This document shows positions 1-35,214 of a stretch of DNA of 54,075 nt, piece by piece; the stretch's first letter is position 1, and every line of letters starts with the position of its first letter. The stretch is from the IMG/VR virus record IMGVR_UViG_3300027896_000056, positions 1-54,075 of that record; one strand, 5' to 3'. The stretch is from a virus. Its lineage: Duplodnaviria > Caudoviricetes. Position numbers and translations under genes: made by a program. The notes beneath the pieces were generated by a model, which saw only the letters and a program-made list of their open reading frames with translations, searched no databases and was not told where the DNA came from.

Positions 1-255
1 TATATTTGGATTGCAGTAGCAGTTGTCTCTTATGGCATTTATTGTTATTTGCTAGGCAGAGGTAAGATTGAGTTTCACGATGATAGTGATAGTCAGCCAA
101 TTACATTCATTATGTTCTTTGCTTGTGCTGCATGGCCATTTGCAATAACTGCTTTAGCTATGGTTGGTCCCTTTATTCTGCTACACAAGCTAGGTTCCAA
201 GCACCGGAAAATTGATAAAGAAAAGAAGCTGATGTGGGAAAAGCTGAAGGCTTGA
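1..255 (+). CDS. membrane protein, 5'-truncated by window edge
   Basis: Frame open from base 1; two hydrophobic segments. Confidence 0.6.
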   Translation, partial: YIWIAVAVVSYGIYCYLLGRGKIEFHDDSDSQPITFIMFFACAAWPFAITALAMVGPFILLHKLGSKHRKIDKEKKLMWEKLKA

Positions 256-335
256 TAGATATAACGAATCCAATATAATTTTCGGTTATTTGAACACGAC
301 AATAGTTATATTTTGCACATTAAGTAACTTTTTGG

Positions 336-364
336 TTGACAGCCGGATCGAGCCGAGCTATGCA
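336..364 (+). promoter_or_regulatory. sigma70-type early promoter
   Basis: GG-TTGACA (336-341), 17 nt, TATGCA; T-rich upstream. Confidence 0.6.
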
Positions 365-395
365 TTGCTCATAGATTCTAACAAAGGATTTCAAA

Positions 396-1058
396 ATGAG
401 TTTTTATCGCAATAGCTCTGCTCGCAAAGTCTTTGATCCCGTTCGCTTCAATACTCGTGAAGCGTTTGCTGCTGCGTGTGCTGCTCAGCGCGTGAACGGA
501 GAGTATCTCAAGCAGGGTGAGTATGATGAACAGGGCGATCAGACGCGCATTGCAAACAAGTATCTGACCCGCGATTTTCTCGACGGAAAGTTTGACATCC
601 GCGATGAAGATCGTGAATTGTCTGAACTCGTGATTCGTCACTTTCAGTCTCTGACTTTCAAGATTTTGCAGGGGGAAGTACTCTCCGATTTCGAAAGCAA
701 GGCTATGGCATGTGCGGCTAGCGAAGATGTTGGTTTGTTCGACATTGCTGTGATTTCTTCGCTTCCGTCTTGCTATATTCGCAATGAAGCGAAAGCTGCT
801 ATCAATCGCCGTCTGCGTGATGCTAATGGGCATGTCGGTCAGGTCGGTGACAAGCTGGAATTGACTGTCGAAGTTCTTCGCTGCAATTACTCGCAGCAGT
901 GGAACACGTGGTTCATCACAGGTATCACTGCCGATAACAAATCGGTGTTTTTCAGCTTCAAGCGTCTTGTCGCTACTGGTTCTACTATGAACATTATGGG
1001 TAAGGTCAAGGCTCACCGCGAAGATGCCACTCAGCTTAATTATGTGAAGGAGGTGTAA
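396..1058 (+). CDS. conserved phage protein with C-terminal OB-fold-like domain
   Basis: AAGGA RBS; C-terminal HVGQVGDKLELTVEV...GKVKAH...TQLNYVK pattern. Confidence 0.6.
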   Translation: MSFYRNSSARKVFDPVRFNTREAFAAACAAQRVNGEYLKQGEYDEQGDQTRIANKYLTRDFLDGKFDIRDEDRELSELVIRHFQSLTFKILQGEVLSDFESKAMACAASEDVGLFDIAVISSLPSCYIRNEAKAAINRRLRDANGHVGQVGDKLELTVEVLRCNYSQQWNTWFITGITADNKSVFFSFKRLVATGSTMNIMGKVKAHREDATQLNYVKEV

Positions 1059-1059
1059 G

Positions 1060-1221
1060 ATGGATTACGAGTTCAAATGGTATGTGATTGCGGTTGCGGT
1101 CATCTTCTTGGTAATGTTTGGTTCGCTCGGATATACCGAACACACCAAGAGTGAATGTCTGCAAGCATATGCTCAAACCAATCGCAGTGCTGCTGAGATT
1201 AAGCAGATTTGCGGGAACTAA
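1060..1221 (+). CDS. small membrane protein (53 aa, not in ORF track)
   Basis: GGAGG RBS; MDYEFKWYVIAVAVIFLVMFG...QICGN. Confidence 0.65.
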   Translation: MDYEFKWYVIAVAVIFLVMFGSLGYTEHTKSECLQAYAQTNRSAAEIKQICGN

Positions 1222-1227
1222 CACCCG

Positions 1228-1452
1228 ATGTTCGGGGCGCGGGAAGCATTCATTAAGGATTTTTGCAATGCAGGTCACGGCGTGAAAGGTCGTGGTGATT
1301 GGAAATCCTTCTTTGCCTGGTTCCCCGTCAAAACTGAGAACAAGTATATTTGGCTCAAGAAAGTTTACCGCAGACAAATCTACTATAGACTCGGTGATCA
1401 GATATTAGTAGAGTATGAATATGGTAATCTGTTTACCATACTGAAAGGTTAA
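1228..1452 (+). CDS. hypothetical protein (W-x-x-x-FAWFPV type)
   Basis: ORF in operon; WKSFFAWFPVK motif resembles WDRHFSLFPRK of 4295..4504. Confidence 0.6.
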   Translation: MFGAREAFIKDFCNAGHGVKGRGDWKSFFAWFPVKTENKYIWLKKVYRRQIYYRLGDQILVEYEYGNLFTILKG

Positions 1453-1456
1453 AACG

Positions 1457-1648
1457 ATGAACAAGAAGCAAAAGTTTTTCGCATGGTTAGTTGTAATCTG
1501 GGACGCGGTGTTCCTGTTGCTTGCTGGTAGCAGCCTCGCATATGATTACAATCACCCACATTTCTGGTCTATTGCGTTGAATCTTTTCCTGTTTTTCTTT
1601 TGGGCACTTTCGTTCATTAGTGATACCGAAAGGCTTCGTCAGAGGTGA
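1457..1648 (+). CDS. small two-TM membrane protein
   Basis: Two hydrophobic helices; AAAGG RBS. Confidence 0.6.
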   Translation: MNKKQKFFAWLVVIWDAVFLLLAGSSLAYDYNHPHFWSIALNLFLFFFWALSFISDTERLRQR

Positions 1649-1651
1649 CAC

Positions 1652-1858
1652 ATGTACATGTCAGAGCAGGCATTTGACAATCTGACAGATTGGTTGCTTG
1701 ACACTGGTCATGATTGGAAAAGTATTGGTATCAGTAATATGTATATCAACAAAGTTATTGTTCCTGCTGCTGGTCTGTATCTCGTAGACTGGGTAAACCG
1801 TCAGTTTGAAATCATCGATGAGAAGCGGTATGTAGCCTTTTCGTTGATGTATCTATGA
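1652..1858 (+). CDS. microprotein, FxL(R/K)(W/Y) C-terminal family #1
   Basis: Ends FEIIDEKRYVAFSLMYL*; ATGA overlap with next gene. Confidence 0.7.
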   Translation: MYMSEQAFDNLTDWLLDTGHDWKSIGISNMYINKVIVPAAGLYLVDWVNRQFEIIDEKRYVAFSLMYL

Positions 1859-2076
1859 CTTGCCTCTGGACACTGAAGGAACAGGGTGTTCGCTTCACCT
1901 ACCAACCTTCAGTTAAAACCTTTTTTTGGGTTGACGAAAAGTTTTATACTGCTAATAAAGAAGAGATTCTTGAATGGGCTGAGCGATATAACTGTGAGGT
2001 TCCTTCAAAAACTTATGGTTGGGTAACTTGTCCCGATGACGATGTTGTATTGATTTTTAGGATGATGTGGTCATGA
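1855..2076 (+). CDS. microprotein family #2
   Basis: Ends PDDDVVLIFRMMWS*; ATGA overlap. Confidence 0.7.
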   Translation: MTCLWTLKEQGVRFTYQPSVKTFFWVDEKFYTANKEEILEWAERYNCEVPSKTYGWVTCPDDDVVLIFRMMWS

Positions 2077-2318
2077 TCTTAGATGTTTCAAGTTACCCAG
2101 TAATCACTGATATGCCGTCTCGTGTCATTGACCAGTGGTTAAATGACAACATTGGACCACTCATTTCGGCTGATGCAGGTGAACTTGGGTGTGACAGTTG
2201 GGGAACTGGGTGGCGTCTTTATTGGCATACAAGCGAAGACTACGGTGTCTGTGGTAAATGGTTGCTTGACGTTGATGACGAATCTAAAATAACTCTGTTT
2301 CTGTTGAGGTGGTCATGA
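2073..2318 (+). CDS. microprotein family #3
   Basis: Start moved to ATGA overlap; ends VDDESKITLFLLRWS*. Confidence 0.7.
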   Translation: MILDVSSYPVITDMPSRVIDQWLNDNIGPLISADAGELGCDSWGTGWRLYWHTSEDYGVCGKWLLDVDDESKITLFLLRWS

Positions 2319-2524
2319 AATGGGTTCGTGAGCATAGTAAGCCTTATAGGCTGGAACTGAAATATAATCTTAGCGAGGAACGTTGGTCAGAAGTTCAAGA
2401 TACACTAAATGAAGCTAAGAAGTGGTGTAGACAGAACAATATGTTTATCTGGGACGATGGGTTGTTCTACATTGGTTTCATTAACCATCGTGATTTAGCT
2501 TGGTTTCTTTTGAGGTGGTCATGA
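2315..2524 (+). CDS. microprotein family #4
   Basis: GAGGTG RBS; ends FINHRDLAWFLLRWS*. Confidence 0.7.
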   Translation: MKWVREHSKPYRLELKYNLSEERWSEVQDTLNEAKKWCRQNNMFIWDDGLFYIGFINHRDLAWFLLRWS

Positions 2525-2808
2525 GTTACTATGAAGCAAAAGATAGAGAACTGTACTCTAAGCTGATTCAGTTTTATCCTAGGGTAGAACCTGGTCATGC
2601 GTTTGTATCCAATCTCTTTAACGAGTTTGAAAAGCAAGATGCTATGCCCAATTATGCGGGCCATATAAATTCATGGGCCAAACGGCTTGAGCAGTGGCTG
2701 CCCGGTAAAGTCGGTTTAATTAGAAATCCAGATGATGCTGATAATTGGGACACGTTTATTGTTGTTGATCAAGGGTTGTATGCCTTTGCATTGTTGAGGT
2801 ATTCATAA
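2521..2808 (+). CDS. microprotein family #5
   Basis: GAGGTG RBS; ends VVDQGLYAFALLRYS*. Confidence 0.7.
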   Translation: MSYYEAKDRELYSKLIQFYPRVEPGHAFVSNLFNEFEKQDAMPNYAGHINSWAKRLEQWLPGKVGLIRNPDDADNWDTFIVVDQGLYAFALLRYS

Positions 2809-3017
2809 TGAGACTGTATTTTAAAGACACGAAAATGATGTATAAAGAGATTAGCGACCTTATGACAAAATCATTTGGCCCTGCAGGTCCTGATACGTGG
2901 CAGAACGGTTGTACAACACACACTGAATCTGTAAATAATGGGCACTTCGGCGGATATGTTGAAATCTATGATACCGAAAATCCTCTTGCTACGTTCATCC
3001 CGCTGAGTTGGTCATGA
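2808..3017 (+). CDS. microprotein family #6
   Basis: TAATG overlap; ends LATFIPLSWS*. Confidence 0.7.
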   Translation: MRLYFKDTKMMYKEISDLMTKSFGPAGPDTWQNGCTTHTESVNNGHFGGYVEIYDTENPLATFIPLSWS

Positions 3018-3238
3018 AAACTGCATTTACATTCAAGCGATGGTGGTGGGGTATAGATCACGAAGATCAACCTCCCCAATGGTGGAAAAACTTCCTTGAT
3101 GCATATAGCCCGTCGGGAGAAGCTGCATATAAAGAACTTAGTAAGATTGCTAAAGTTAGACACAAGACCAACGGAAATATCCGTGTAGTGTTCAACAGCC
3201 CGGGTGACCTTGCGTTTTTCATTTTAAAGTGGTCATGA
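3014..3238 (+). CDS. microprotein family #7
   Basis: Ends VFNSPGDLAFFILKWS*. Confidence 0.7.
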   Translation: MKTAFTFKRWWWGIDHEDQPPQWWKNFLDAYSPSGEAAYKELSKIAKVRHKTNGNIRVVFNSPGDLAFFILKWS

Positions 3239-3429
3239 AAACTATAAAACTTTCTTCTGCGAAATGGCGAGAAGTGGCTTTGGAATACAAACCTAAGACT
3301 AACTTTGATAACGTTATGCATGATGTTTATGGATTAAAGCGTGTAATTCTACAAGATGACATTTTTGGACATTATTACAAAGTCTTGGATGAACAAAAAT
3401 ATCTTATGTTTGTATTGAGGTGGGCATGA
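3235..3429 (+). CDS. microprotein family #8
   Basis: Ends VLDEQKYLMFVLRWA*. Confidence 0.7.
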   Translation: MKTIKLSSAKWREVALEYKPKTNFDNVMHDVYGLKRVILQDDIFGHYYKVLDEQKYLMFVLRWA

Positions 3430-3626
3430 TTAACATGATGATTACGCTAGAAAAATACTATGAGCTAGCTGGTCTGATCAATGATGGACTTGGTACTGAA
3501 CTGGGAAAGTTTCAGCGAGTGTACAAATGTAATCCCATGCTACTTGCCGGTGCTGAACCAGGCACACTAAGATTAGATTTTGATGAAGAAAAAGATATGG
3601 TTTGGTTTAAGTTGAAATATCTATGA
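3426..3626 (+). CDS. microprotein family #9
   Basis: Ends FDEEKDMVWFKLKYL*. Confidence 0.7.
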   Translation: MINMMITLEKYYELAGLINDGLGTELGKFQRVYKCNPMLLAGAEPGTLRLDFDEEKDMVWFKLKYL

Positions 3627-3886
3627 GTAAGAAAACTATCAGAGAGTCTACCCACTTCAAGTTCATTCAGAGCAAACACGCTCCGCCGGGTAATCAATGG
3701 GCACAGCCGTTGTATATCATTGACGCTCGTAAGGGGTGGACTGCTACTAGCATTGATATGGAAGAGGTCAGAAACATTGTTGATCCTAATCGCAATATCA
3801 GCGGTAAGAATGGTACTCGTTGGAAGTTCCGCAAGTTTGAAGATGCTGACAAACTGTGGATGTATCTTGTATTGAGGTATTCGTAA
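3623..3886 (+). CDS. microprotein family #10
   Basis: Ends FEDADKLWMYLVLRYS*. Confidence 0.7.
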   Translation: MSKKTIRESTHFKFIQSKHAPPGNQWAQPLYIIDARKGWTATSIDMEEVRNIVDPNRNISGKNGTRWKFRKFEDADKLWMYLVLRYS

Positions 3887-4293
3887 TGCAATATACTCTC
3901 CCTAGCGATGGCTCAACAAGTGAAATGTTTTGGGATGCACAAGAACGTGCATACGGAGGCGTTTATGTAGAATGTAGGTGTGGCATACAGCATTACGCGG
4001 TCGATTCACGATATGCACATGAATATGATGAAGATGCTCTTATTCCGGAAGAATCAGACGAGGGTGACTACAAAGTTAAACATCATCATGGCTGTGATAG
4101 TGTAGCTCATTTTGAGTTTATTGGACAACAGTTTGTGTATGGATGTGATGGATGCTCTAAGTATCTGCACCGATATGAAGATTTCATTTGGGCAGAACGT
4201 GACACTATTAGAAATTATCTCAAAATCAGGATTGATCAAGAGAAAAAGTGGGCCGATCAGGAACATTTGAAAAACATTTTGGCAGGAATATGA
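3886..4293 (+). CDS. hypothetical Cys/His-containing protein
   Basis: TAATG overlap, GAGGT RBS; CRCGIQH and CDGC motifs. Confidence 0.65.
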   Translation: MQYTLPSDGSTSEMFWDAQERAYGGVYVECRCGIQHYAVDSRYAHEYDEDALIPEESDEGDYKVKHHHGCDSVAHFEFIGQQFVYGCDGCSKYLHRYEDFIWAERDTIRNYLKIRIDQEKKWADQEHLKNILAGI

Positions 4294-4294
4294 T

Positions 4295-4504
4295 ATGGCA
4301 TACTATTATGACGATGATCAGTATAGACCCAAACAGCAGTGGGATCGGCATTTCTCTCTGTTCCCAAGAAAGTGTGGCCGCAGTGGAAAATCCCTGTGGT
4401 TTAAATGGGGATATCGCTTAAGAGATTACCCTGATGTAACTTGGCCGGATGATTTTTGGATATCTGAACGAGAATATATGTGGATGGTGCTGAAACAAGA
4501 TTGA
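4295..4504 (+). CDS. hypothetical protein
   Basis: AGGA RBS; resembles 1228..1452. Confidence 0.6.
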   Translation: MAYYYDDDQYRPKQQWDRHFSLFPRKCGRSGKSLWFKWGYRLRDYPDVTWPDDFWISEREYMWMVLKQD

Positions 4505-4529
4505 CAAACACCTGTGTTTGTTATATACT
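4501..4529 (+). promoter_or_regulatory. sigma70-type promoter for ligase
   Basis: TTGACA-17-TATACT. Confidence 0.7.
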
Positions 4530-4552
4530 CAAGCATATTAAGGAGATATTAC

Positions 4553-5902
4553 GTGTCTGCATCTTGGATTCAAAAGCTCAACGAAAGTGATTCGCGCCTT
4601 CACAAGGAAGATGTGATCAGGCAGGCACTTACTGCTGCAAAGCTGGGTAACATCATTTCTACTCGTTTCTTGCGAGGACTGAATTGGTGCTATAATCCAT
4701 ATATGACCTTTGGTATCAAGCAGATTCCTGATACAGTTGGCATTGTTGATGCTGAAAACCCATATGAAGATTTCTTCATTGTGATGAAGGACCTCAATGA
4801 GCGTAGGCTGACTGGTCATGATGCTCGTGATGCTATTGCTGAATTGGCTGAACGATTTGATAGTGATGAATGGAACCTATTCCTCGCGCCGATCCTTCGT
4901 CGTGATATGCGTAGCGGCATCAGTGTTACTACTATCAACAAGATTTGTAAGGGCACTGACTGGGAGATTCCCGTATTCAGTTGTCAGCTTGCTACTAACA
5001 GCGAAGGTCGCCCTGAAATGCGTGGCACCAAGCGGCTTGAACCTAAGTTGGATGGTGTTCGGGTATTGATGGTGGTTAATATCACTGATAGCGGCACCTA
5101 TTCAACATGCTATAGTCGTAACGGTAAGGTCTTTGAAAACTTCAAGCATATTGAAGACCAGATTCTGGAAAATTTGGCTAAGTTGCTACATGCTCGTCAC
5201 AAGATTTCTATCCTCGGTTCTGATATTACTCGTGGGTTTGTACTTGATGGTGAAGTTGTAGGTAACAGCTTCCAAGAACTGATGCGACAAGCCCGGCGTA
5301 AAGAAAATGTCACAGCCGAAGACAGCGTATTTCATATCTTTGATATTCTTCCTATCGCTGATTTCAGTCGCGGTCATTGGAATGCACAGTTGAGCAAGCG
5401 CATTAAGTTGCTTGAAGCTATGCATCCTGCAATTGACAAGATGCCCAATGTAGAACTGCTTCCTCACATCGAAGTTAATCTTGATGAACACGAAGGTCGT
5501 AGCAAGTTTGAGCGTTACTGCCGTGATATGGTTGAAGCCGGTTACGAGGGCGTTATGATCAAGGACCTCGATAGTCCTTATCTCTGTAAGCGCAGTACCA
5601 GTTGGATGAAGTATAAGCCCACGATCACTGTTGATCTTCAAGTTATTGGTCTTGAAGAAGGAACTGGTCGCAACAAGAACCGTTTGGGCGCACTTGTTTG
5701 CAATGGGATTGACGATGATAAGGAAATCACTGTCAATGCCGGTAGCGGGTTCAGTGATAGTGAGCGTGACAGCCTTTGGGAAGATCGCAACTTGATTGTA
5801 GGTCGTACTGTTGAAATTATGGCTGATGCTATCACTCAGAATCAAGATGGCACTTACAGTCTTCGTTTTCCCCGTTTCGTTCGTTTTAGGGATGATAAGT
5901 GA
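4553..5902 (+). CDS. lig: ATP-dependent DNA ligase
   Basis: Motif I EPKLDGVR, LDGE, EGVMIK, WMKYKP, C-terminal SLRFPRFVRFRDDK; GTG start after AAGGAG. Confidence 0.95.
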   Translation: MSASWIQKLNESDSRLHKEDVIRQALTAAKLGNIISTRFLRGLNWCYNPYMTFGIKQIPDTVGIVDAENPYEDFFIVMKDLNERRLTGHDARDAIAELAERFDSDEWNLFLAPILRRDMRSGISVTTINKICKGTDWEIPVFSCQLATNSEGRPEMRGTKRLEPKLDGVRVLMVVNITDSGTYSTCYSRNGKVFENFKHIEDQILENLAKLLHARHKISILGSDITRGFVLDGEVVGNSFQELMRQARRKENVTAEDSVFHIFDILPIADFSRGHWNAQLSKRIKLLEAMHPAIDKMPNVELLPHIEVNLDEHEGRSKFERYCRDMVEAGYEGVMIKDLDSPYLCKRSTSWMKYKPTITVDLQVIGLEEGTGRNKNRLGALVCNGIDDDKEITVNAGSGFSDSERDSLWEDRNLIVGRTVEIMADAITQNQDGTYSLRFPRFVRFRDDK

Positions 5903-6171
5903 TGGCTTATCATAATGAACGAAACGGTTGGGTAGACAACGGTAAGAAGTTGAATAACGAACCATGTCCAAACTGCGGCAGTAAGAACTTCACGGAAACC
6001 GTGAGTCGTGAATACTGCCCTGATTGTAAGATGGAATGTGACTATTGGGGCGACGGTTCTAACGAAGTATATGATGCATATTGTGAGCGTAAGTGGTCCG
6101 AGGATGAACGGCGACGAGAAGAAGACTTTCGTAGACAAATGCGCGAAGAATGGGGCGACCACAATAGATAA
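5902..6171 (+). CDS. zinc-ribbon protein
   Basis: CPNC...CPDC. Confidence 0.6.
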   Translation: MAYHNERNGWVDNGKKLNNEPCPNCGSKNFTETVSREYCPDCKMECDYWGDGSNEVYDAYCERKWSEDERRREEDFRRQMREEWGDHNR

Positions 6172-6205
6172 CAGTATACCTTCCAAAGAAGAACAAATCT
6201 TGGAA

Positions 6206-6400
6206 ATGTTCAAGTGGCTTGAAGAAAATGCAGAAGCACTAGGTGGATGCTCTGACGGAAACTGCGTGATTCATAAACCAAAAGGTATGCACACTAACGG
6301 TGGATGCAGATGTGCATCTGATAGAAACAGAATTTATAGATACGTTCAATATGTTGCCTATTTTCGCAGCAAAGTTCGTAAAATACGGGATGAAAACTAA
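6206..6400 (+). CDS. hypothetical Cys-rich protein (start uncertain)
   Basis: GCSDGNC...GMHTNGGCRC. Confidence 0.5.
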   Translation: MFKWLEENAEALGGCSDGNCVIHKPKGMHTNGGCRCASDRNRIYRYVQYVAYFRSKVRKIRDEN

Positions 6401-6606
6401 TGATTAATGCTATGTTTGGGGGCGATGCACGCCTGACAGGTAACGATACTGATTATAATCGTTGCCATAGTTGCGGATTGATCACGACTACTCTTCCAGT
6501 TGGTATCAGTCACGAAGAGGTTTGTGTGGAATGTGCGGAAAAGGAAGAGTTCGTTACTGTGACTCGTATGATGGAATGCATCATTGTTGAGGACTCAGAA
6601 TCCTAA
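6400..6606 (+). CDS. small zinc-finger protein
   Basis: CHSC...CVEC; TAATG overlaps. Confidence 0.55.
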   Translation: MINAMFGGDARLTGNDTDYNRCHSCGLITTTLPVGISHEEVCVECAEKEEFVTVTRMMECIIVEDSES

Positions 6607-6830
6607 TGGAAGACGATGACGGTCCAAAAATGGAAGACTACATGTGGATTGTAGGAAAATCCCGTGTGTTCGAGGACGGCGATAGTATCGAAGTCATTCA
6701 GATTAAGCGCAGAGAAACAGGTCCTTGGGTAACCTTCCATATCACTCAGGGCCCGGGAATTCCTCGTAAGCTACTGCTGACTTTGGAAGAATTTAATTCT
6801 TCATACGGACATCTGTTCGAAAGAGACTGA
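6606..6830 (+). CDS. hypothetical protein
   Basis: Coupled ORF. Confidence 0.6.
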   Translation: MEDDDGPKMEDYMWIVGKSRVFEDGDSIEVIQIKRRETGPWVTFHITQGPGIPRKLLLTLEEFNSSYGHLFERD

Positions 6831-6846
6831 AACGACTAAATATATC

Positions 6847-8415
6847 ATGTTCTTAAAAAAGTTATTTAGTTTTGCTACATTAACCTTATTAGTTGCTCTC
6901 ACTCTGAGTAGTATTGCGGCTTGGTATTCCGTATTAGGATTGACTGCGATCTTCGCCGCAGCCGTAATTCCAATCACGATCATGGGCGGATCGCTCGAAA
7001 TTGCCAAAGTTGTAACAACGGTATGGCTGCACAAATACTGGAATCGTGCTGGATGGAAGTTGAAGCTCTATCTTGTTCCCGCCGTAATCATGCTTGCATT
7101 CCTGACGAGCATGGGTATCTTTGGCTTTTTGTCTAAGGCTCACAGTGACCAATCGCTAGTAAGCGGTGACATTCAGGCCAAGATTTCAGTATACGATCAA
7201 AAGATTCAGACTGCTAAAGAAAATATCACCAGTGACCGCAAGGCTTTACAGCAAATGGACGCTGCGGTTGATCAGGTTATGGGGCGATCCACTGATGTAA
7301 GAGGTGCCCAGCAATCTACTAATATTCGCAAGTCACAGTCAAAAGAAAGAGCTAGACTTAACAAGGATATTGAAGATAATCAAACAATTATCTCTAAGCT
7401 GAATGACGAAGCTGCTCCTATTCGTGCCCAAGTGCGTAAGGTTGAAGCAGAGGTTGGTCCCGTCAAGTATATTGCTGCTTTTATCTATGGTGATAACCCT
7501 GACAATAATTTACTTGAACGTGCTGTTCGATGGGTAATCATTGTTATTGTATTTGTGTTTGATCCGCTAGCTCTTACTCTTGTTCTAGCTGCACAATCAA
7601 GTTATGAATGGCTTGATGAGGATTTGAATAAGCAAGAAGAAGAATTTGACGAAGACGATTTCAAGGAAAAGTTCTTTGATTCGAAGGGGAAGGTCGATCC
7701 TGATATTAATCTAGGATTTGATGATCCCGAAGAAGTAGTGCATGACAAATGCGGAACACCTGAATGCTGTGGACAATGCGATACTGCGGTAGATGACGAG
7801 TTCCTCGCAAAACTAAATGCCGTAAAACCTAAGGAGGTTGCCCATGATGTTTCAAATGATGTACAGTCAGATGATGTTGAATCAGATGCTTTGGTGGGAG
7901 AAGACCTACCAGAAACATCTGTTCCAGCCACAGATGAACCTGTTGAAGAACTGGAACCGAGTGAAGAGGGAACTGTCTCAGAACCTGAATCCATCGGAGA
8001 AGTAGAAATAGAGACTGAGGGCGTAACCATTCATGAAATGGAACATGGTTACGTTCAAGTTGATGGAAAACAGATGCATAAATCTGCATATTTGGGAATG
8101 CATCCTCGTCTCTTAGCATCACCAAATGACGAGAAAAGTGGCCCTGGATTTGGATCAATATTCCCTCAATTCGCAGCTAAAGGTGATGTCTTTGTACGAG
8201 TTGACACACTGCCAAACCGAGTTTACAAGTTCGACGGAGTTCGTTGGATCGAAATCAATAAAGACCTCTCCGATTCATATCTTTATGACGAAGAATATTT
8301 AAAGCATTTGGTTGCTAAGATTGAATCAGGCGAGTATGATGTCGAGCTACTTTCTGACAATGAACGCTCTCAAATCGAAGAATATCTTCAACGCACGACT
8401 AATACGGATAAATAA
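6847..8415 (+). CDS. multi-TM, coiled-coil, acidic-tail membrane protein
   Basis: 3-4 N-terminal TM helices, coiled coil, TM (FDPLAL), D/E-rich linker; preceded by CTAAATA. Confidence 0.8.
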   Translation: MFLKKLFSFATLTLLVALTLSSIAAWYSVLGLTAIFAAAVIPITIMGGSLEIAKVVTTVWLHKYWNRAGWKLKLYLVPAVIMLAFLTSMGIFGFLSKAHSDQSLVSGDIQAKISVYDQKIQTAKENITSDRKALQQMDAAVDQVMGRSTDVRGAQQSTNIRKSQSKERARLNKDIEDNQTIISKLNDEAAPIRAQVRKVEAEVGPVKYIAAFIYGDNPDNNLLERAVRWVIIVIVFVFDPLALTLVLAAQSSYEWLDEDLNKQEEEFDEDDFKEKFFDSKGKVDPDINLGFDDPEEVVHDKCGTPECCGQCDTAVDDEFLAKLNAVKPKEVAHDVSNDVQSDDVESDALVGEDLPETSVPATDEPVEELEPSEEGTVSEPESIGEVEIETEGVTIHEMEHGYVQVDGKQMHKSAYLGMHPRLLASPNDEKSGPGFGSIFPQFAAKGDVFVRVDTLPNRVYKFDGVRWIEINKDLSDSYLYDEEYLKHLVAKIESGEYDVELLSDNERSQIEEYLQRTTNTDK

Positions 8416-8420
8416 TTTAT

Positions 8421-9620
8421 ATGTCTGACAAAAAATTACACCACTGCTCCTTCTGCGGGAAGCACAAGGATCAGGTTACCAAACTAATCGTCGGTGAAGA
8501 TGTTGCAATTTGTAGCATTTGTATTGATCTATGCAATGACCTTATCGATAAGGATCATGGCGCGGAAAAGGTCAAGCAACCAGAAGATATCAGCTTTGAT
8601 GCATATTCCATCAAGGAATACCTTGACCAGCATGTCATTGGTCAAAGTGCTGCCAAAGAGGTTTTAGCCGTTGCAATTTCCAATCACTACAAGCGTATCA
8701 ACCATCCACCTAAGGATTTGGAAATCCAAAAGGGAAACGTTCTTTTTGTCGGACCAACTGGGTCAGGTAAAACATTGCTCGCAAAAACAGTTGCGAAGTG
8801 CCTTAACGTTCCATTCGTAGTAGCAGATGCTACCAATCTTACCGAAGCAGGTTATGTAGGCGAAGACGTTGAATCCATGATTGCAATGCTTCTTGCCAAT
8901 GCCGACAACGATGTTTCTTTAGCTGAACGCGGTATCGTGTTTATCGATGAGATTGACAAGATTTCTCGCAAGAGCGAGAGTGCTAGTATTACTCGTGACG
9001 TATCAGGTGAGGGTGTCCAACAGGCATTGCTTAAGCTGGTAGAAGGTGCCAAAATCCGCGTGAGCCCTGTTGGTAAGCGCAAGCATCCTCAGGCTGAAAA
9101 CATTGAGGTTGATACTAAGAATATTCTATTCATCGCCGGCGGCGCGTTCGTTGGACTTGACAATATTATCAAGGGTCGAACAGATGGAAGTTCGATTGGA
9201 TTTGGTTCTACTATTCGTTCAAAGAATGAAACTGCTGATTTGAAGCTAGTTACCCCAGACGATCTTACCCGTTTTGGTATGATTCCAGAGTTTATCGGAC
9301 GCTTTACAACTACCATCACTCTTGAGGAACTAACACTCAAACAGCTAGTAGAAGTGCTACTCAACATTAAGAATAGCTTCATTGATCAATACAAGTATCT
9401 CTTTGAACTTGATGGAATTAAGCTGACATTCACTGATGAGGCTATTCACAAGATTGCACAGAATTGCATCGACCTTAAGACAGGTGCGCGTGGTCTGCAC
9501 ACTGAAATTGAACGTGTGTTGATGCCACACATGTTCCACATTCGCAAGTACAAGGAAAACGATATTGTGGAATTGGTAATCGACACTGATTTGATTGAAA
9601 AGCCCAAAGCACTTATTTGA
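8421..9620 (+). CDS. clpX: ATP-dependent Clp protease ATPase subunit ClpX
   Basis: C4 zinc finger CSFC..CSIC, Walker [13 protein letters not shown] pore loop, Walker B FIDEID, RKH and IGF loops. Confidence 0.96.
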
Positions 9621-9723: not shown

Positions 9724-10173
9724 ACTAGAGAACTAACCCTTCGTTCCCTCGATATTCCAGCAATTCACAAGTTTGGTATCGGATTTGATTCACTATTTGA
9801 TGAACTTATGCGTAACAACGCGCAACAGGCAACGAACTACCCACCTTACAATATCGTAAAGCACGATGATGACAACTTCATCATTGAACTCGCCGTTGCC
9901 GGTTTCAACGAAGGCGATATTCACATTACATTGGAAAAGAATCTTCTCACTATTAAGGGTGAGCAGACACAATCTCTTGACGAACTCGAAAAGGAGGTTG
10001 AATACCTGCATCGTGGCATTTCGGCTCGCAGCTTCACACGTACCTTTACACTTGCCGATCACGTGGAAGTGTCAAAGGCACATGCAAAGAACGGCATACT
10101 CAGCATTGAACTTGAACGCAAGGTTCCTGAGGAACAGAAGCCAAAAAGTATTGCAATCTCATACAAAAAGTGA
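9721..10173 (+). CDS. ibpA: small heat-shock protein Hsp20 (IbpA-like)
   Basis: NYPPYNI, ELAVAGF, YLHRGI, FTRTFTL, NGIL. Confidence 0.95.
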   Translation: MTRELTLRSLDIPAIHKFGIGFDSLFDELMRNNAQQATNYPPYNIVKHDDDNFIIELAVAGFNEGDIHITLEKNLLTIKGEQTQSLDELEKEVEYLHRGISARSFTRTFTLADHVEVSKAHAKNGILSIELERKVPEEQKPKSIAISYKK

Positions 10174-12398: not shown

Positions 12399-13019
12399 AT
12401 GAGTCTCGTACCTATCGTTATTGAACAGACCTCTCGCGGTGAGCGGTCGTATGACATCTACTCCCGACTGCTTAGGGATCGTGTGATCCTTCTAGAAGGC
12501 GAAGTGCATGATCAGATGGCCAATCTTATCGTTGCACAGTTGCTTTTCCTCGAATCGGAAGATCCTGATGCTGATATTTCGCTTTATATCAACTCGCCGG
12601 GTGGTTCAGTAACTGCTGGACTTGCTATCTATGATACTATGAATTTCATTAGGCCCGATGTTTCTACTATTGTTATGGGCCAGGCTTGTTCGATGGGATC
12701 GTTTCTTGCAATGGCAGGGACGCCCGGCAAGCGAATCGTTCTTCCGCAGTCTCGCACTATGATTCACCGAGTCAGTTCTGGTACTCGCGGTACAAAGGGT
12801 TCGGTTCACGTTCAGGAACTCGAATTTGAAGACGCTCGGCGTCATCTGGAGGAATCCAAGAAGATCAATGAGCGCCTGACTCAGTTGTATGTTGAGCATA
12901 ACACTGCCGGCAAGACCTATGAGGAACTGTTTGAAACTATGAAGTTTGACACGTTCCTGTCTGCTTCCGAAGCCGTCGAATACGGTCTTGCAGACAAAAT
13001 CGTAGCAAAGCGTCCTTGA
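12399..13019 (+). CDS. clpP: ATP-dependent Clp protease proteolytic subunit ClpP
   Basis: [15 protein letters not shown], catalytic GQACSMG, MIH, FDTFLSA.EA.EYGL.D. Confidence 0.96.
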
Positions 13020-13799: not shown

Positions 13800-14013
13800 C
13801 GAATCTAATCTTTGGCTATCGACTCCTGAGGAATTCACCGAAGTTCCTGACGGAACAGTATTGCTTAGTGTTAGCGATGATACCAGGGTCAAGGGTAAAG
13901 ACTACATTGATGATGACACACGAGGTGGTTGTATTGCATATGGTCTTACTCCCGCTATGGCAGAATCTCAAGGATTGATGCCTCAGTTTATCATTTGGAA
14001 ACTGAGAAGCTAA
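13783..14013 (+). CDS. hypothetical protein
   Basis: Ends QFIIWKLRS*; KGKDYIDDDTRGG motif. Confidence 0.6.
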   Translation: MRLWDNESNLWLSTPEEFTEVPDGTVLLSVSDDTRVKGKDYIDDDTRGGCIAYGLTPAMAESQGLMPQFIIWKLRS

Positions 14014-19997: not shown

Positions 19998-20495
19998 ATG
20001 AACAAGGTTCTTGTTATCGCTGCTCTGGCAACATCGGTTGCACTGAGCGCATGTGCTCCTACTGAACGTCAACCTACTGCCGATGAGATTCAGAACCGGA
20101 AGCAGGAGGAAATGTCGAAGCAGGGCGTCGAATCTGTCGGTCTTCCTGCTATCAAGAACTTCCAAGAGAAGCGATTGATGAAGGACATTCTTGAAATGCG
20201 TGACGATCCCAAGTTGGCTACGTACACGTATACACAGGACATGAACGGGCATGTCCACAAGATTTGTAACTCTATCGGTTACGGTCTGCCGTACGCGACT
20301 CAGTACACTTCTCCACAGAAGGAATCGGATCACAGCTATCAACTGGCTTTGCCTCAGGCTGATCCGAATGGTCTCTATAGTCCAGTAAGTGCAGATGGCA
20401 CTTGGGTACTCTGCAAGGTTCCTGGCACGGACAAGTTGGAACCCCAGTACATTGAACCTCATATTCTTGTCACTACTTTTCCTCTCTCTAATTAA
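19998..20495 (+). CDS. lipoprotein, paralog A
   Basis: Lipobox LSA-C; GYGLPYATQY, PQADPNGL. Confidence 0.8.
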   Translation: MNKVLVIAALATSVALSACAPTERQPTADEIQNRKQEEMSKQGVESVGLPAIKNFQEKRLMKDILEMRDDPKLATYTYTQDMNGHVHKICNSIGYGLPYATQYTSPQKESDHSYQLALPQADPNGLYSPVSADGTWVLCKVPGTDKLEPQYIEPHILVTTFPLSN

Positions 20496-20506
20496 GGAAT
20501 AATACC

Positions 20507-21007
20507 ATGAATAAAATTACTATTTTTACTGCTCTTGCTGCTACCTTTGCTCTTGCTGGGTGCGAAGCTCCTGTTCCGACTTCGGATCAGATTCAGAATG
20601 CCAAGCAGGAAGAACTGAGCAAGCAGGGTGTCGAGTCTGTTGGGCTTCCGGCTATTCATAACTTTCAGGAAAAGCGCCTGATGAAGGACATTCTTGAACT
20701 TCGTGATCAGCCGAATCTCGTGACCTACTCATACATTCTTGACCTCAACGGGCATACGCACAAGGTCTGTGACTCAATCGGGTACGGTCTTCCGTATGCT
20801 ACGCAGTATACCAATCCTCAGCGAGTTGCTCATTTGTACCAGCATGACGGTATCGCGGCTATTCCTCAGGCTGACCCGAACGGCTTGTTCAGTCCTACTG
20901 CTGCTGATGGCACTTGGGTACTCTGCAAGGTTCCTGGCAAGGATGATGTGAAGCCTCTTTACGTTGAACCTCACGTAATTGTTTCGCCCTTCCCGCTTTC
21001 GATGTAA
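20507..21007 (+). CDS. lipoprotein, paralog B
   Basis: Lipobox LAG-C; highly similar to paralog A. Confidence 0.8.
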   Translation: MNKITIFTALAATFALAGCEAPVPTSDQIQNAKQEELSKQGVESVGLPAIHNFQEKRLMKDILELRDQPNLVTYSYILDLNGHTHKVCDSIGYGLPYATQYTNPQRVAHLYQHDGIAAIPQADPNGLFSPTAADGTWVLCKVPGKDDVKPLYVEPHVIVSPFPLSM

Positions 21008-22856: not shown

Positions 22857-23183
22857 ATGCAAATCGCAATCGCAGATACAGATGGTCGTGTTAATCTCTG
22901 GTGTGATGTTACTAGCATCAACGAAGATGGTTCCATTAACTTTTACGTACTTAATGGCGCCTGGGATGGTAGGTACCACAATGGACAGGTCTTTGTAGAG
23001 TACACTAAGGCAACCTATCCCGGTATGCTTGTATGGGTCGGTAATGCTCCCGGCGACTACAACCACGCTATTCATTGGATTCAAGATCAGATTGACGATC
23101 CTGACTATGTAATGACGCCGCCCGAGCAATATGTTGAACCTGTACAGGAAGAAGATGAAGAATGGGATGACGTTCCTTTCTGA
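22857..23183 (+). CDS. hypothetical protein with SSB-like acidic tail
   Basis: Ends EEDEEWDDVPF*. Confidence 0.65.
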   Translation: MQIAIADTDGRVNLWCDVTSINEDGSINFYVLNGAWDGRYHNGQVFVEYTKATYPGMLVWVGNAPGDYNHAIHWIQDQIDDPDYVMTPPEQYVEPVQEEDEEWDDVPF

Positions 23184-25075: not shown

Positions 25076-25465
25076 ATGATTCCCGAAGAGCATAAGGCAA
25101 GTATTATTACGAGTGGTATTGCATTTCTTCGTTCCATTACCGATGCCTATGGCAGTGACGAAGGTATGAAACTTTGGGACTCCATTGCCAATACCCTTGA
25201 TCCCGCAGTGAAAGGTGAAATCTTTTTCGCAATGCTGCGCGGTGAATATCAGGATCATATCACCCTCAAGGGCGTGGGATATAATGCTAATGCATCTAAG
25301 ATCACTGCAATCAAAGAGATTCGCGGTGTGTCTGGACTTGGGCTGCTGGAGGCAAAGCAGGTATATGAAACTGCCGAACAGGGAATTCCGGTCAAGATTC
25401 CTTGTTCTCCCGATAAAATCGGAGCAGCGATTGCCGCCCTTCGTTATGCTGGAATGGTGATATGA
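25076..25465 (+). CDS. protein with ribosomal L7/L12 C-terminal-like domain
   Basis: KITAIKEIRGVSGLGLLEAKQVYE. Confidence 0.75.
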   Translation: MIPEEHKASIITSGIAFLRSITDAYGSDEGMKLWDSIANTLDPAVKGEIFFAMLRGEYQDHITLKGVGYNANASKITAIKEIRGVSGLGLLEAKQVYETAEQGIPVKIPCSPDKIGAAIAALRYAGMVI

Positions 25466-25656
25466 AACACCACGTTCGTCTTACGTCTGAACAATGGCAT
25501 AAAATGTATGAACGAGTGCCGGTCTATGCTGGCTTTGACAAGTTTTACGAATGTGAAACTGATGAAATCAAATGCTTGAACACTGACGGAACTGATCACT
25601 ATCTTGTGTTTGAAACTGAACAAGATGCAATCATGTGGACATTGAAGTATCTATGA
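25462..25656 (+). CDS. microprotein family, dispersed member
   Basis: Ends VFETEQDAIMWTLKYL*; junction TTGAAGTATCTATGA as at 3612-3626. Confidence 0.7.
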   Translation: MKHHVRLTSEQWHKMYERVPVYAGFDKFYECETDEIKCLNTDGTDHYLVFETEQDAIMWTLKYL

Positions 25657-25877
25657 CAAAGCCTTTGAAATACAAAATCGTTCGGCGGGGCCAGAAGTAT
25701 TGTGTTCGTGTTAAGGGCAAACTTAATACTACTGATACTTTTCGCTATTGCTATGATCGCAAGATGAGCTATCATATTAGGCAACCTTGGCTAAGGCAGA
25801 ATCCTAATTGGGATTTTGACTTCATCTTTGACAAGGAATATGAAGTTACTGCATTTATTATGGGATATTTGGCATGA
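25653..25877 (+). CDS. microprotein family, dispersed member
   Basis: Ends FDKEYEVTAFIMGYLA*. Confidence 0.6.
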   Translation: MTKPLKYKIVRRGQKYCVRVKGKLNTTDTFRYCYDRKMSYHIRQPWLRQNPNWDFDFIFDKEYEVTAFIMGYLA

Positions 25878-30051: not shown

Positions 30052-30570
30052 ATGAAGCCTAAGTTCATCGATTACTTCATGAAGTTTGCTGAGCTTACCA
30101 GCACACTTAGTTATGCAAAGCGTTTACAAGTTGGTTCAGTCATCGTAAAGAATGACCAAATCATTGGCACCGGCTATAATGGTATGCCAAGTGGTTGGGA
30201 TAACGATTGTGAATTTAAAGTTTGGGATAATGGAGCAGGGGGATGGCTTTCTGTTGAAGAGTTTGAATCCCAGTATCCATATGAAACGTGGAATGAGCAG
30301 GCTGGCCGCAATGTTCGATATGGATTAAAGACTCGCCCTGAGGTCCTGCATTCAGAAATGAATGCACTGATGAAGGTTGCACAGTCTACCGAATCCACGA
30401 AGAATGCCACACTTTTTTGCACTCATGCTCCCTGCATTGATTGTGCTAAAGCAATATACCAAGCAGGCATCACTACAGTTTATTATAAGGAAGACTATAG
30501 ATCAACCGATGGTTTGGAATTTTTGCGAAGGTCAGGTGTTAATGTCCATCAATATACCGAACGCACATAG
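30052..30570 (+). CDS. dCMP deaminase
   Basis: GYNG, HSE, PCIDC. Confidence 0.92.
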   Translation: MKPKFIDYFMKFAELTSTLSYAKRLQVGSVIVKNDQIIGTGYNGMPSGWDNDCEFKVWDNGAGGWLSVEEFESQYPYETWNEQAGRNVRYGLKTRPEVLHSEMNALMKVAQSTESTKNATLFCTHAPCIDCAKAIYQAGITTVYYKEDYRSTDGLEFLRRSGVNVHQYTERT

Positions 30571-30742
30571 AGCAAACATCACTGTACAGTTTGGGCAACT
30601 ACAACCTATTCTACAATGGTGCGAACGAAACTGTACCAGTGAATGGCGGTTTATGGAAGACATTAATGATCAGTATAACGGATTCGAGTTTTTCTTTGAA
30701 TCCGAAAGAGACTATGTAGCTTTTTTGATTTGGAAAAAATAA
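30542..30742 (+). CDS. microprotein family, dispersed member
   Basis: WCERNC..; ends FFFESERDYVAFLIWKK*. Confidence 0.65.
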   Translation: MSINIPNAHRANITVQFGQLQPILQWCERNCTSEWRFMEDINDQYNGFEFFFESERDYVAFLIWKK

Positions 30743-30987
30743 TGAAGTTTTTGATATTCAACCGAGAATCTGATAACTTTGATGACATTCTACAAGATGT
30801 CAAGACGCATAAGATACGCTTCAAGCTACGTTTTCTCAATCACCTTATTTTGGGGTTTGATAATAAAACTGAAAAAGAACAATCCCTATTCACATTGAAG
30901 TACGGGGACGACATGATTGACTTTGGTCATATCGTCCCCGATCGTTCTCCAGTAATGTACAGAGATTATATTCCTATTAGGAAGTGA
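30742..30987 (+). CDS. hypothetical protein, internal FTLKYG motif
   Basis: TAATG overlap. Confidence 0.6.
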   Translation: MKFLIFNRESDNFDDILQDVKTHKIRFKLRFLNHLILGFDNKTEKEQSLFTLKYGDDMIDFGHIVPDRSPVMYRDYIPIRK

Positions 30988-31591: not shown

Positions 31592-32137
31592 ATGAAGATA
31601 ACTGAACTCTTTGAAGATGTCCAAAAAGGCAAACCCATAGTCTATGTGGACATGGATGGAGTCGTAGCTGACTTGTATAGTCATGCTGCTGAACTCAGCA
31701 ACGTTGACCACTACAATGACATGACCGATAAACAGTGGGATCAATTCTTCAAAGATTCCAATGCATATGAACTGTTTCGAGACATTAAGCCATTTTCGAC
31801 TGCAAACAAACTGCTTGAACTTGTAAAGAAGTATGCAGGTGGCTATACTATTCTTAGTAGCCCATTGAGTTTTGATAAGGCAGGTAGCATCAGAGGCAAG
31901 TCGGAATGGCTAAAGAAGCACATTACCGTTAAGCCTGATAACGTAATTTTTGAGCATGACAAGTACAAGTATGCTGTTCAGCCTGATGGCACTCCCAATA
32001 TATTGATTGACGATTACGGTGTCAACACTCGTGCGTGGAATGAACACGGTGGAGTTGCTTGCAAGTATCAAGCTGACGAAGATTCTCTGGATAAGGTGGT
32101 AGCAGTTCTACAAAAGGTCTTCGAAAAAGATAAATAA
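31592..32137 (+). CDS. HAD 5'(3')-deoxyribonucleotidase-like protein with N-terminal leader peptide
   Basis: DMDGV, ILSS, LIDD; begins MKITELFE. Confidence 0.85.
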   Translation: MKITELFEDVQKGKPIVYVDMDGVVADLYSHAAELSNVDHYNDMTDKQWDQFFKDSNAYELFRDIKPFSTANKLLELVKKYAGGYTILSSPLSFDKAGSIRGKSEWLKKHITVKPDNVIFEHDKYKYAVQPDGTPNILIDDYGVNTRAWNEHGGVACKYQADEDSLDKVVAVLQKVFEKDK

Positions 32138-34659: not shown

Positions 34660-35214
34660 ATGCGTGAATATATTACCTTACTTGAAGCCAAATCTAAGCC
34701 TCAAGACATAGAAATCATACCATTGAACTTCACGGAGCGTGAAGTTTCTCCAGTTATGGGGAAGGACACCCTTGACCTTCATTATAACAAGTTGGCTAAG
34801 GGATATGCTCAACGCTACAACGATAATGAAGGTGACTCTGACTTCAACTATGCTGGTGCGTTCTTACATAACATGTGGTTCCCTCAGTTTAGGGAAGTAA
34901 GAACGAACAATAAACCTAACGGCCCGATGCTATCATTCATCAACAAACACTTTGGCGATTACGATAAGTTCAAAGGTGCTTTTCTTGAGGAAGCGTTGAA
35001 GATTGAAGGATCGGGTTGGATTTATCTTGCCCATGATGGCAGTATCAAAACAATCAAAAACCATGAAGTCCGAGATGACATACTGCTTCTTGTTGACTGG
35101 TGGGAACACGCATGGATTCTTGATTACGGCAGCGATAAGAAAACATATCTCAAAGAACTCTGGAAGATTATCAACTGGAATGTGATCAATACTCGTTGGG
35201 GTAAATCACTGTGA
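34660..35214 (+). CDS. sod: Fe/Mn superoxide dismutase with N-terminal leader peptide
   Basis: LHY, FLHNMW, GSGW, DWWEHAW ligands; begins MREYITLLEA. Confidence 0.88.
   Translation: MREYITLLEAKSKPQDIEIIPLNFTEREVSPVMGKDTLDLHYNKLAKGYAQRYNDNEGDSDFNYAGAFLHNMWFPQFREVRTNNKPNGPMLSFINKHFGDYDKFKGAFLEEALKIEGSGWIYLAHDGSIKTIKNHEVRDDILLLVDWWEHAWILDYGSDKKTYLKELWKIINWNVINTRWGKSL

Follow-up and report, generated by a model that had tools for sequence, protein, structure and literature searches.

Ten tandem phage microproteins with one C-terminal ending: a large unannotated family whose last codons may also start the next gene

Why should ten adjacent phage genes, whose products at first sight look unrelated, all end in nearly the same few residues? 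The question is raised by positions 1652-3886 of a 54,075-nucleotide stretch of viral DNA (Duplodnaviria; Caudoviricetes; IMG/VR record IMGVR_UViG_3300027896_000056; this whole stretch is called the window), which hold ten back-to-back plus-strand open reading frames (ORFs) of 64-95 amino acids (aa). A preliminary description, made from the sequence alone, took the common ending for a docking-like motif on a set of expanded paralogues. The finding is real and larger than that description saw: on the evidence of profile searches, the array belongs to a large, unannotated microprotein family found in phage records only. We read the array as a translationally coupled run of cassettes of this family, in which the DNA of the tail also supplies the next gene with its ribosome-binding site and start, and the products are independent accessory binders on one scaffold, and we give this reading a probability of about 0.5. 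With the overlapping ATG taken as the start, the ten ORFs are as follows.

1652-1858, plus strand: cassette 1, 68 aa, tail AFSLMYL; membership by tail and position only
1855-2076, plus strand: cassette 2, 73 aa, tail IFRMMWS; helix of the E-I-x-x-W-x-x-x-N type
2073-2318, plus strand: cassette 3, 81 aa, tail LFLLRWS; junction is an exact TTGAGGTGGTCATGA; paralogue at 14013
2315-2524, plus strand: cassette 4, 69 aa, tail WFLLRWS; exact match to the junction motif
2521-2808, plus strand: cassette 5, 95 aa, tail FALLRYS; membership by tail and position only
2808-3017, plus strand: cassette 6, 69 aa, tail FIPLSWS; membership by tail and position only
3014-3238, plus strand: cassette 7, 74 aa, tail FFILKWS; P-x-W-W-x-N-F helix; best family member
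3235-3429, plus strand: cassette 8, 64 aa, tail MFVLRWA
3426-3626, plus strand: cassette 9, 66 aa, tail WFKLKYL; junction without a Shine-Dalgarno (SD) sequence
3623-3886, plus strand: cassette 10, 87 aa, tail YLVLRYS; membership by tail, position and order of predicted elements

The ORF listing of the window bears out ten contiguous frames with a common ending, and all ten tails were quoted correctly in the preliminary description; each fits the form Phi-x-L-(R/K/M/S)-(W/Y)-(S/A/L)-stop. Among window ORFs of at least 40 aa, a loose tail pattern occurs in 12 of 153 on the plus strand versus 1 of 117 on the minus strand, and ten of those 12 are consecutive and constitute the array. The junction DNA TTGAGGTGGTCATGA, with up to three mismatches allowed, occurs seven times, always within the array, while shuffled sequences gave a mean of 1.9 and reached seven in 0 of 100 cases. 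These counts show that the array observation is real and far from chance.

Are the ten ORFs one family? Among themselves they are distant: the best pairwise E-value is 0.002, and in leave-one-out hidden Markov model (HMM) searches of the window the omitted ORF ranked first in five of ten cases (E 0.01-0.2). When 1.84 billion database representatives were searched with a profile (A1) of 33 members, drawn from the window and from its relatives, 208 clusters matched at E≤1e-3. All 150 listed clusters are 51-108 aa long; selected as they were by a profile that includes the tail, 146 have the motif exactly at the C-terminus, and their consensus is F(-15) x [TS] E(-12) x D(-10) [YA] x x F(-6) x L(-4) [RK] W(-2) S, stop, with F(-15) conserved in 145, E(-12) in 130, D(-10) in 122, and F(-6) in 139. 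The W-x-x-N motif noticed upstream of the tail in the preliminary description is also real, with W-x(1,2)-N-hydrophobic in 116 of the 150 and a W-[CLM]-x-x-N-like form in 23 more. The N-termini, described as unrelated, are so only in part, as many array members have a W-x-N helix in common; by eye it is clear in 3014, 2073, 2315, 1855, and the dispersed ORF 25462, questionable in 1652, 2521, and 3623, and missing from 2808 and 3426. Family proteins are rich in Trp (5.2% of residues), have near-invariant W, N, R, and acidic positions, and range in net charge from -10 to +10.

A second profile, made from 113 sequences from outside the window and applied to every stop-to-stop frame of the window (907 in all), returned five of the ten array ORFs at E<0.01 (3014, 2315, 3426, 3235, and 2073; E 1.6e-11 to 2.2e-3) together with ORF 25462, in alignments covering 13 to 65 positions. 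Cassette 7 gave the lowest E-value, over positions 10-74 of 74; hhalign against the family gives it 95.8%, or 66% without its last six residues, and 34 orthologues stand in its alignment. The other four are cassette 4 (external HMM E 2e-6, hhalign 85%, 234 jackhmmer matches), cassette 9 (E 5.6e-5, 80%), cassette 8 (E 7.8e-4, in the tail region only, 62%; pairwise E 0.005 over 60 residues with ORF 25462), and cassette 3 (E 2.2e-3, 87%). A jackhmmer link brings in cassette 2 as a sixth, reaching 56 pool sequences that include family members (external HMM E 0.23). By these sequence comparisons, six of the ten array ORFs are statistically tied to the family. For cassettes 1, 2, 5, 6, and 10, hhalign gives 0.6-3.5% (1.4%, 3.5%, 1.9%, 1.3%, and 0.6%, in that order), with unrelated control ORFs at 0.1-1.7%. 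Cassette 1 has five pool matches, all orthologues, and no external HMM match at E<10; cassette 5 finds only itself in the pool and has no external HMM match; cassette 6 has an external HMM match at E 7.4, outside the tail; and cassette 10 has 16 orthologues at 63-93% identity and no external HMM link.

The family is carried in high copy number. Profile matches number 11 and 14 in two near-complete relatives of the window, where they fall in several clusters, and 30, 16, 15, 22, and 10 in five other whole records; jumbo phage relatives (330-374 kb) have 10-30 copies each. A narrower alignment of 15 sequences found 13 more viral loci, and single 12-kb loci contain 21, 20, 16, and 16 matches, on one strand throughout and all ending at the stop codon. 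At the ligase locus, some relatives (L001 and L004) carry just one member. In two database relatives, P0067 (97 aa) and P0108 (105 aa), the tail unit occurs twice within the protein, which would fit a fusion of two cassettes or the loss of the first stop; a search for fused longer forms, in which 4066 candidates of 173-2000 aa were scored, gave none at E≤0.01, which is weak evidence.

The expectation that the family has no function already assigned held up. Of 118 members, never more than one matched the same family of Pfam, PHROGs, NCBIfam, or PADLOC; Pfam gave four singleton families, and PADLOC seven families, each matched by one member (E 0.001-0.01). The ten array ORFs gave only chance-level Pfam rows at E≤0.1 and nothing in PHROGs, and the best match in PDB by sequence had an E-value of 0.13. 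Database orthologues bear only the source name 'hypothetical protein', and a protein atlas returned only virus clusters so named (scores 0.87-0.88). Among cultured phages, megablast of positions 1200-6000 gave no match and tblastn with a consensus-like member (P0149) none at E≤0.01. One narrow motif pattern run against 185,579 cellular species genomes gave nine pattern matches, none of them confirmed, and a search of the open-access full-text literature, supplements not covered, found nothing on the family.

What, then, holds the motif so strictly to the C-terminus? The array junctions of the window are eight ATGA stop/start overlaps and two TAATG, preceded by GAGGTGG or GAGGT in five of ten, by weaker SD forms in three, and by none in two; cassette 1, for example, has the ATGA overlap without an SD, and cassette 5 a TAATG junction with GAGGT. 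A stop codon that overlaps the next start, with an SD close before it, is the sequence architecture of a coupled operon. A single polyprotein made by frameshifting was considered and dropped, as the regular -1 frame step between cassettes is a simple result of the 4-base and 1-base overlaps.

The codons of the tail are strongly biased. We tallied 154 distinct tails in two groups, the window lineage and other phages, with the same frames elsewhere as background. Arg(-3) is AGG in 15/17 and 87/97 cases (elsewhere 14/102 and 54/586), Leu(-4) is TTG in 22/27 and 76/119 (33/157 and 105/585), and Ser(-1) is TCA in 14/20 and 43/62 (17/108 and 93/508); the stop is TGA in 22/28 and 85/126 tails, and an ATGA overlap is present in 20/28 and 72/126. 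The preferred codons TTG-AGG-TGG-TCA-TGA spell GAGGTGG, TC, and ATGA, and GAGGTGGTC can presumably pair over nine positions with the textbook 16S rRNA 3' end, which may not be that of the host. Where the next start abuts the tail (114 tails), 88 of the 92 Arg codons are AGG; in the other 34 tails, a mixed class that includes ATG inside Lys/Arg-Trp codons and GTGA-overlap cases, AGG accounts for 10 of 19, and Lys(-3) is found in 14 of 34 versus 12 of 114. The coupling architecture may thus account for the place of the motif at the very end of the protein and, in large part, for which residues the last four are.

The nucleotide signal does not account for everything. In orthologues just ahead of the ligase gene, where no gene abuts, L-R/K-W-S is retained but written in other codons (CTC AAA TGG TCT or CTT CGT TGG TCT, stop TAA or TGA). 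The main replacements of W(-2) are F (14) and Y (3), both of which take two base changes, and not its one-step neighbours, R(-3) is replaced mainly by K, and conservation reaches at least 10 residues further upstream than the SD codons. Because codon bias is found together with residues kept under other codons, replacements that conserve chemistry, and this upstream conservation, we read the tail as genuine dual coding, in which a nucleotide signal and protein-level selection would act on the same bases. In one relative (L032), just after 7970, the stop of frame 7713-7970, the junction sequence stands twice in tandem, AGGTGGGCGTA and then AGGTGGGCGTAG, which may be a trace left by slippage or recombination where two cassettes join.

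We modelled two members with AlphaFold2. The model of ORF 3014 (46 aligned sequences; predicted local distance difference test score (pLDDT) 81.4, predicted template modelling score 0.63) has a strand at 4-7, a short helix at 9-12, helices at 22-31 and 35-45, strands at 46-50 and 56-60, and a helix at 63-73; this last block has a pLDDT of 89-90, and there is no low-confidence tail. The tail is thus predicted to be an integral, structured C-terminal helix that follows a conserved strand, not a loose docking peptide, and the [TS]-E-x-D at its start we take to be a helix cap. The best model of ORF 3623 (15 orthologues; pLDDT 83.9) has three N-terminal strands, a helix at 46-53, strands at 60-62 and 66-69, and a helix at 72-86, so that the order helix-strand-strand-helix is common to the C-terminal halves of both. 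Foldseek against PDB with the ORF 3014 model gave a best E-value of 0.44, and the best VIA fold-search scores, Z 3.7 for this model and Z 5.2 in a many-way tie for that of ORF 3623, are at noise level; the top row of the latter, 7eni_C, a chain of a Cas/anti-Cas complex (Z 5.2, 59 residues, root-mean-square deviation 3.4), is tied with kinases and ribosomal proteins and is likewise noise. Look-alikes in BFVD are uncharacterised proteins of uncultured phages, and the best ones differ between the two models.

Comparison with relatives indicates how the array was put together. The window and relative L014 have three blocks of DNA homology (window 370-2529, 2791-3017, and 4295-6000), the four inner ends of which all lie within 17 bases of a cassette junction, and other cassettes are present in the gaps of L014. 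Cassette 5 is absent at the corresponding place in L014; cassette 6 has an orthologue in L014 and L015 (88% DNA identity over window 2791-3017); and by eye an ORF at L014 9118-9324 has a tail resembling that of ORF 3623, at a different array position. Between window 2501-2529 and L016 8081-8109, 29 bases are 93% identical, a similarity of different cassettes that is confined to the junction. Orthologues in other contigs are 61-95% identical, and the paralogues within the array are far more distant, so the array is an assembly of old cassettes and not the product of a recent burst. The idea of an expanded paralogue library with constant and variable parts is borne out by the copy number per genome, by the charge range, and by cassettes gained, lost, and reordered between relatives.

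Between cassette 10 and the last small ORF ahead of the ligase gene lies a 135-aa Cys/His-rich ORF (3886-4293) without a Pfam match, which is outside every block of homology with L014 and looks like a non-family cassette inserted in the array. The small ORF after it ends in a similar way to the cassettes, and its membership is unsupported (hhalign 0.2%; orthologue in L014 at 9782-9991).

4295-4504, plus strand: last small ORF ahead of the ligase gene, 69 aa, tail-like end WMVLKQD

Taken together, the reading that we prefer is as follows. The array would be a polycistronic series of translationally coupled cassettes, each encoding a single-domain microprotein of about 50-110 aa. Two parts would be constant, an N-terminal W-(W)-x-N-F helix and a C-terminal strand and helix F-x-[TS]-E-x-D-[AY]-x-x-F-x-L-[RK]-W-S, and these would form the hydrophobic core of a small alpha/beta scaffold whose remaining surface is free to vary. 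The last 15 bases, TTG-AGG-TGG-TCA-TGA, would do three jobs at once: they would encode the end of the core helix, supply a strong SD (GAGGTGG), and provide the overlap (ATGA) at which the next cassette starts. Such a triple role would account both for the strict C-terminal motif and for serial translation of the cassettes, which would be old, divergent paralogues gained, lost, and reordered as whole units at their junctions.

As to function, the proteins are probably accessory, early-expressed binders of varied host targets, serving takeover or counter-defence and acting singly, not through ClpX. We infer this repertoire of binders from the variation in copy number, the range of charge, the turnover of cassettes, and a gene neighbourhood with promoter-like sites. 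Two sigma-70-like sites bracket the array block, with no comparable site or strong terminator inside, although the 18 such sites in positions 1-7000 are not above shuffled sequences (mean 15.5).

252-279, plus strand: sigma-70-like promoter match (11/12), ahead of the array gene block; consensus match only
4501-4529, plus strand: sigma-70-like promoter match (11/12), between the array block and the DNA ligase gene; consensus match only

Several observations pull the other way. The leave-one-out signal in the window is gone once the last six residues are removed, the omitted ORF then ranking 28th to 349th. Four cassettes (1652, 2521, 2808, and 3623) are tied to the family by tail and position only, their hhalign values (0.6-1.9%) lying in the range of the controls, and the tail-bearing profile that selected the database sequences makes the tail statistics overstate constancy. 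The SD role of GAGGTGG is suggested by codon bias and by what is generally known of such sites, and the large ORFs of the phage use weaker, AAGGA-like sites (an SD-like 4-mer in 19 of 40 versus 14% of random positions). There are two structural models only; their N-terminal halves differ (one strand and helices versus three strands), so that a common fold is seen in the C-terminal half alone, and that of ORF 3623 is confident in one of five models, the other four having a pLDDT of 52-58. That the conserved residues form the hydrophobic core is suggested by helix periodicity, from which their burial is deduced. Finally, breakpoints at gene borders are equally expected from selection against broken genes.

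A bolder version of the same reading holds that the 15-base tail is also a homology patch for the duplication of cassettes and for their exchange from array to array and from phage to phage, and that the 10-30 binders of a genome are a fast-evolving library that neutralises varied host defence or toxin proteins; we consider it unlikely.

The coupling could also serve to keep subunits equimolar, if the members were interchangeable or co-assembling parts of one hetero-oligomer with the conserved helix as interface. The tight junctions (eight ATGA and two TAATG) agree with this, as does the consensus, in which the conserved helix reads as hydrophobic on more than one face, and small three-stranded alpha/beta proteins often pair their sheets. 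A fixed complex is hard to fit, however, with 10-30 copies per genome and with cassettes swapped between relatives, with the single member at the ligase locus of L001 and L004, or with net charges from -10 to +10, and we hold this explanation to be quite unlikely.

Could the tail be just a by-product of a conserved junction (a ribosome-binding site, a stop/start overlap, and perhaps a recombination site) on ten ORFs that are otherwise unrelated? The strong codon bias of the tail points that way, as do the loss of the leave-one-out signal without the last six residues, the four of ten ORFs without another statistical link to the family, and the 29 bases of junction-only similarity with L016. 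Against it stand the conservation upstream of the SD codons, from F(-15) to F(-6); the separate N-terminal W-x-N motif in most listed relatives; and profile matches that span up to 65 of 74 positions, so that the HMM signal, though dependent on the last six residues within the window, is not limited to the last four. Members without an abutting gene retain the residues with other codons, and replacements conserve chemistry, not bases. Other coupled junctions of the window have their SD embedded in quite different, unrelated peptides and do not encode the tail peptide. On this balance, a mere by-product is very unlikely.

The preliminary description had offered a partner for the tail, the phage's own ClpX, on which the C-terminal L-R-W-S would dock at the zinc-binding N domain as the tail of SspB does, making the family ClpXP adaptors or inhibitors. 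The window does encode a ClpX with zinc-finger N domain and AAA+ domain (8421-9620; zf-C4_ClpX E 2.3e-14) and a ClpP (12399-13019; E 1.2e-67), 5-9 kb downstream of the array; ClpX orthologues are present in three of five further family-bearing records (56-66% identity); and the motif stands at the very C-terminus, where its Leu-Arg and the hydrophobic residue after it are similar to the end of SspB (LRVVK, as quoted in that description). However, one relative of 374 kb, with a completeness rating of 100%, carries 16 members but lacks ClpX; the best match there is 40 residues of AAA fold at E 1.4e-4. The ClpX-binding segment of SspB, as described in passages of PMC9963277, ends a disordered region of a homodimeric adaptor, whereas the tail here is predicted as a helix of a single domain of 50-110 aa. 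Pfam gives the ten ORFs chance-level rows only and the 118 relatives no recurrent family, so that no sequence relation to SspB is seen there. The C-terminal position and the R-W-S are largely explained by the ribosome-binding site and ATGA overlap, the last four codons being a strong nucleotide signal. Docking on phage ClpX is therefore highly improbable; docking on that of the host, rather than of the phage, may be envisaged.

Just as improbable is a single ligand site formed by the conserved Trp, Asn, and Arg, with the family serving as sponges for a nucleotide signal or as nucleic-acid binders: the Trp content, the near-invariant W, N, R, and acidic positions, and a weak fold resemblance to RNA-recognition-motif-like, ferredoxin-like, and winged-helix domains speak for it, but no fold match rises above noise (Z ≤3.7, or the many-way tie at 5.2), one conserved ligand would not need 10-30 highly divergent copies per genome, and PADLOC and Pfam gave no match to known sponge or defence families.

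How does the family, read as a set of coupled binder cassettes, compare with known systems? Passages of PMC7824862 report about 35 zinc-ribbon copies in Bacillus phage G, a lineage-specific expansion of a small protein in a jumbo phage. The likeness lies in many copies of one small domain, of unknown or regulatory function, in a very large phage genome (PMC7824862); the family here differs in its other fold, the lack of metal-binding cysteines, the tight coupled tandem arrays, and the strictly C-terminal motif. The passages of that paper on ClpX, ClpP, expansion, and paralogs do not mention the microprotein family. Translational coupling through an ATGA or TGATG overlap, with the SD within the 3' end of the upstream ORF, is described in PMC6728339 and PMC12548453. 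In the present case, one SD-plus-overlap sequence is fixed family-wide and in phase with conserved residues, so that one stretch of 15 bases is both the C-terminal signature and the coupling signal. Conserved gene-boundary sequences have been proposed for module shuffling in phages, as in the promoter-stem-loop cassettes of T4-type phages and the boundary sequences of lambdoid phages. The array is like these in its short conserved border sequence and in whole-gene replacements between relatives with breakpoints at the borders; it is unlike them in that the junction lies inside coding sequence and has no promoter or stem-loop, and a recombination role is putative. Polymorphic-toxin loci, which we mention as a lead only, carry tandem, small, divergent alpha/beta immunity paralogues with few conserved aromatics, thought to neutralise varied toxins. 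A library of phage binders would be their counterpart in logic, although here there is no match to a Pfam immunity family, the members come from phage records only, and no toxin gene is seen in the array.

If the reading as coupled binder cassettes is true, each genome in a clade of freshwater jumbo phages spends 10-30 genes on a single small scaffold that has no name in protein-family libraries, and a large block of viral dark matter would come under one easily searched signature. Small, rich in Trp, and tolerant of almost any surface, the scaffold would be well suited to counter-defence screens and a candidate for a library of binders made by nature. Several functions (C-terminal residues, ribosome-binding site, and stop/start overlap) would be packed into the 15 bases of the junction, a natural case that calls for caution: where microproteins of an operon have a C-terminal peptide motif in common, a nucleotide signal can be part of what is conserved.

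Of the five dispersed members proposed in the preliminary description, two stand, one is weak, and two (25653-25877 and 30742-30987) are unsupported (external HMM E 8.3 and 6.5, hhalign 0.3% and 0.7%). The ORF at 25462 is confirmed, and that at 14013 is a full-length paralogue of cassette 3, to which the family HMM itself gives no match.

25462-25656, plus strand: dispersed family member, 64 aa, tail MWTLKYL; external HMM E 1.5e-7 over positions 17-73; database orthologues P0010 and P0042
14013-14228, plus strand: dispersed paralogue of cassette 3, decayed tail YYLLTH; BLASTP E 8e-6, 29% identity over 65 residues
30542-30742, plus strand: possible dispersed member of the W-C-x-x-N type, tail AFLIWKK; external HMM E 0.24, hhalign 10%; weak

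The surroundings of the array include an ATP-dependent DNA ligase just after it, ClpX, ClpP, dCMP (deoxycytidine monophosphate) deaminase-like proteins, a nucleotidase, glycosyltransferases, and a phosphoesterase. A search with the ligase found 25 viral contigs, among them one of 360,683 bp with terminal repeats, rated complete, and one of 333,115 bp; the nearest cultured phages, by the ligase and by a 522-aa protein of the window, are below 60% identity. Given these jumbo-sized ligase relatives and no close cultured phage, the window is a piece of an uncultured jumbo phage. Sequencing runs containing the array stretch are labelled freshwater and, in some cases, marine; those listed for 1652-4504 include no RNA run, which is not evidence on expression.

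Several other genes of the window deserve mention. The 522-aa protein (6847-8415) has no Pfam match; its residues 26-260, approximately, are 24-42% identical to hypothetical proteins of Pelagibacter phage Mosig and of the jumbo phages XacN1, Xoo-sp13, SCTP-2, and RsoM2USA, which hints at a wider phage clade. Two adjacent ORFs of 165 and 166 aa (19998-20495 and 20507-21007), both starting with MNK and with near-identical tails P-H-[IV]-[LI]-V-x-x-F-P-L-S, have no Pfam match and look like a tandem duplicate. A small ORF with an acidic D-D-[VI]-P-F tail, again without a Pfam match, is found at 22857-23183, at L001 9394-9723, and in relatives; in several of them its orthologue lies directly upstream of the last pre-ligase family member, and the tail is of the kind borne by single-stranded DNA-binding proteins at their C-termini. 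Two deaminase-domain proteins (30052-30570, with the dCMP/cytidine deaminase fold, and 35211-36383, a 390-aa protein with that domain at its N-terminus), together with an NT5C-type nucleotidase (31592-32137), suggest phage-directed remodelling of pyrimidine nucleotides.

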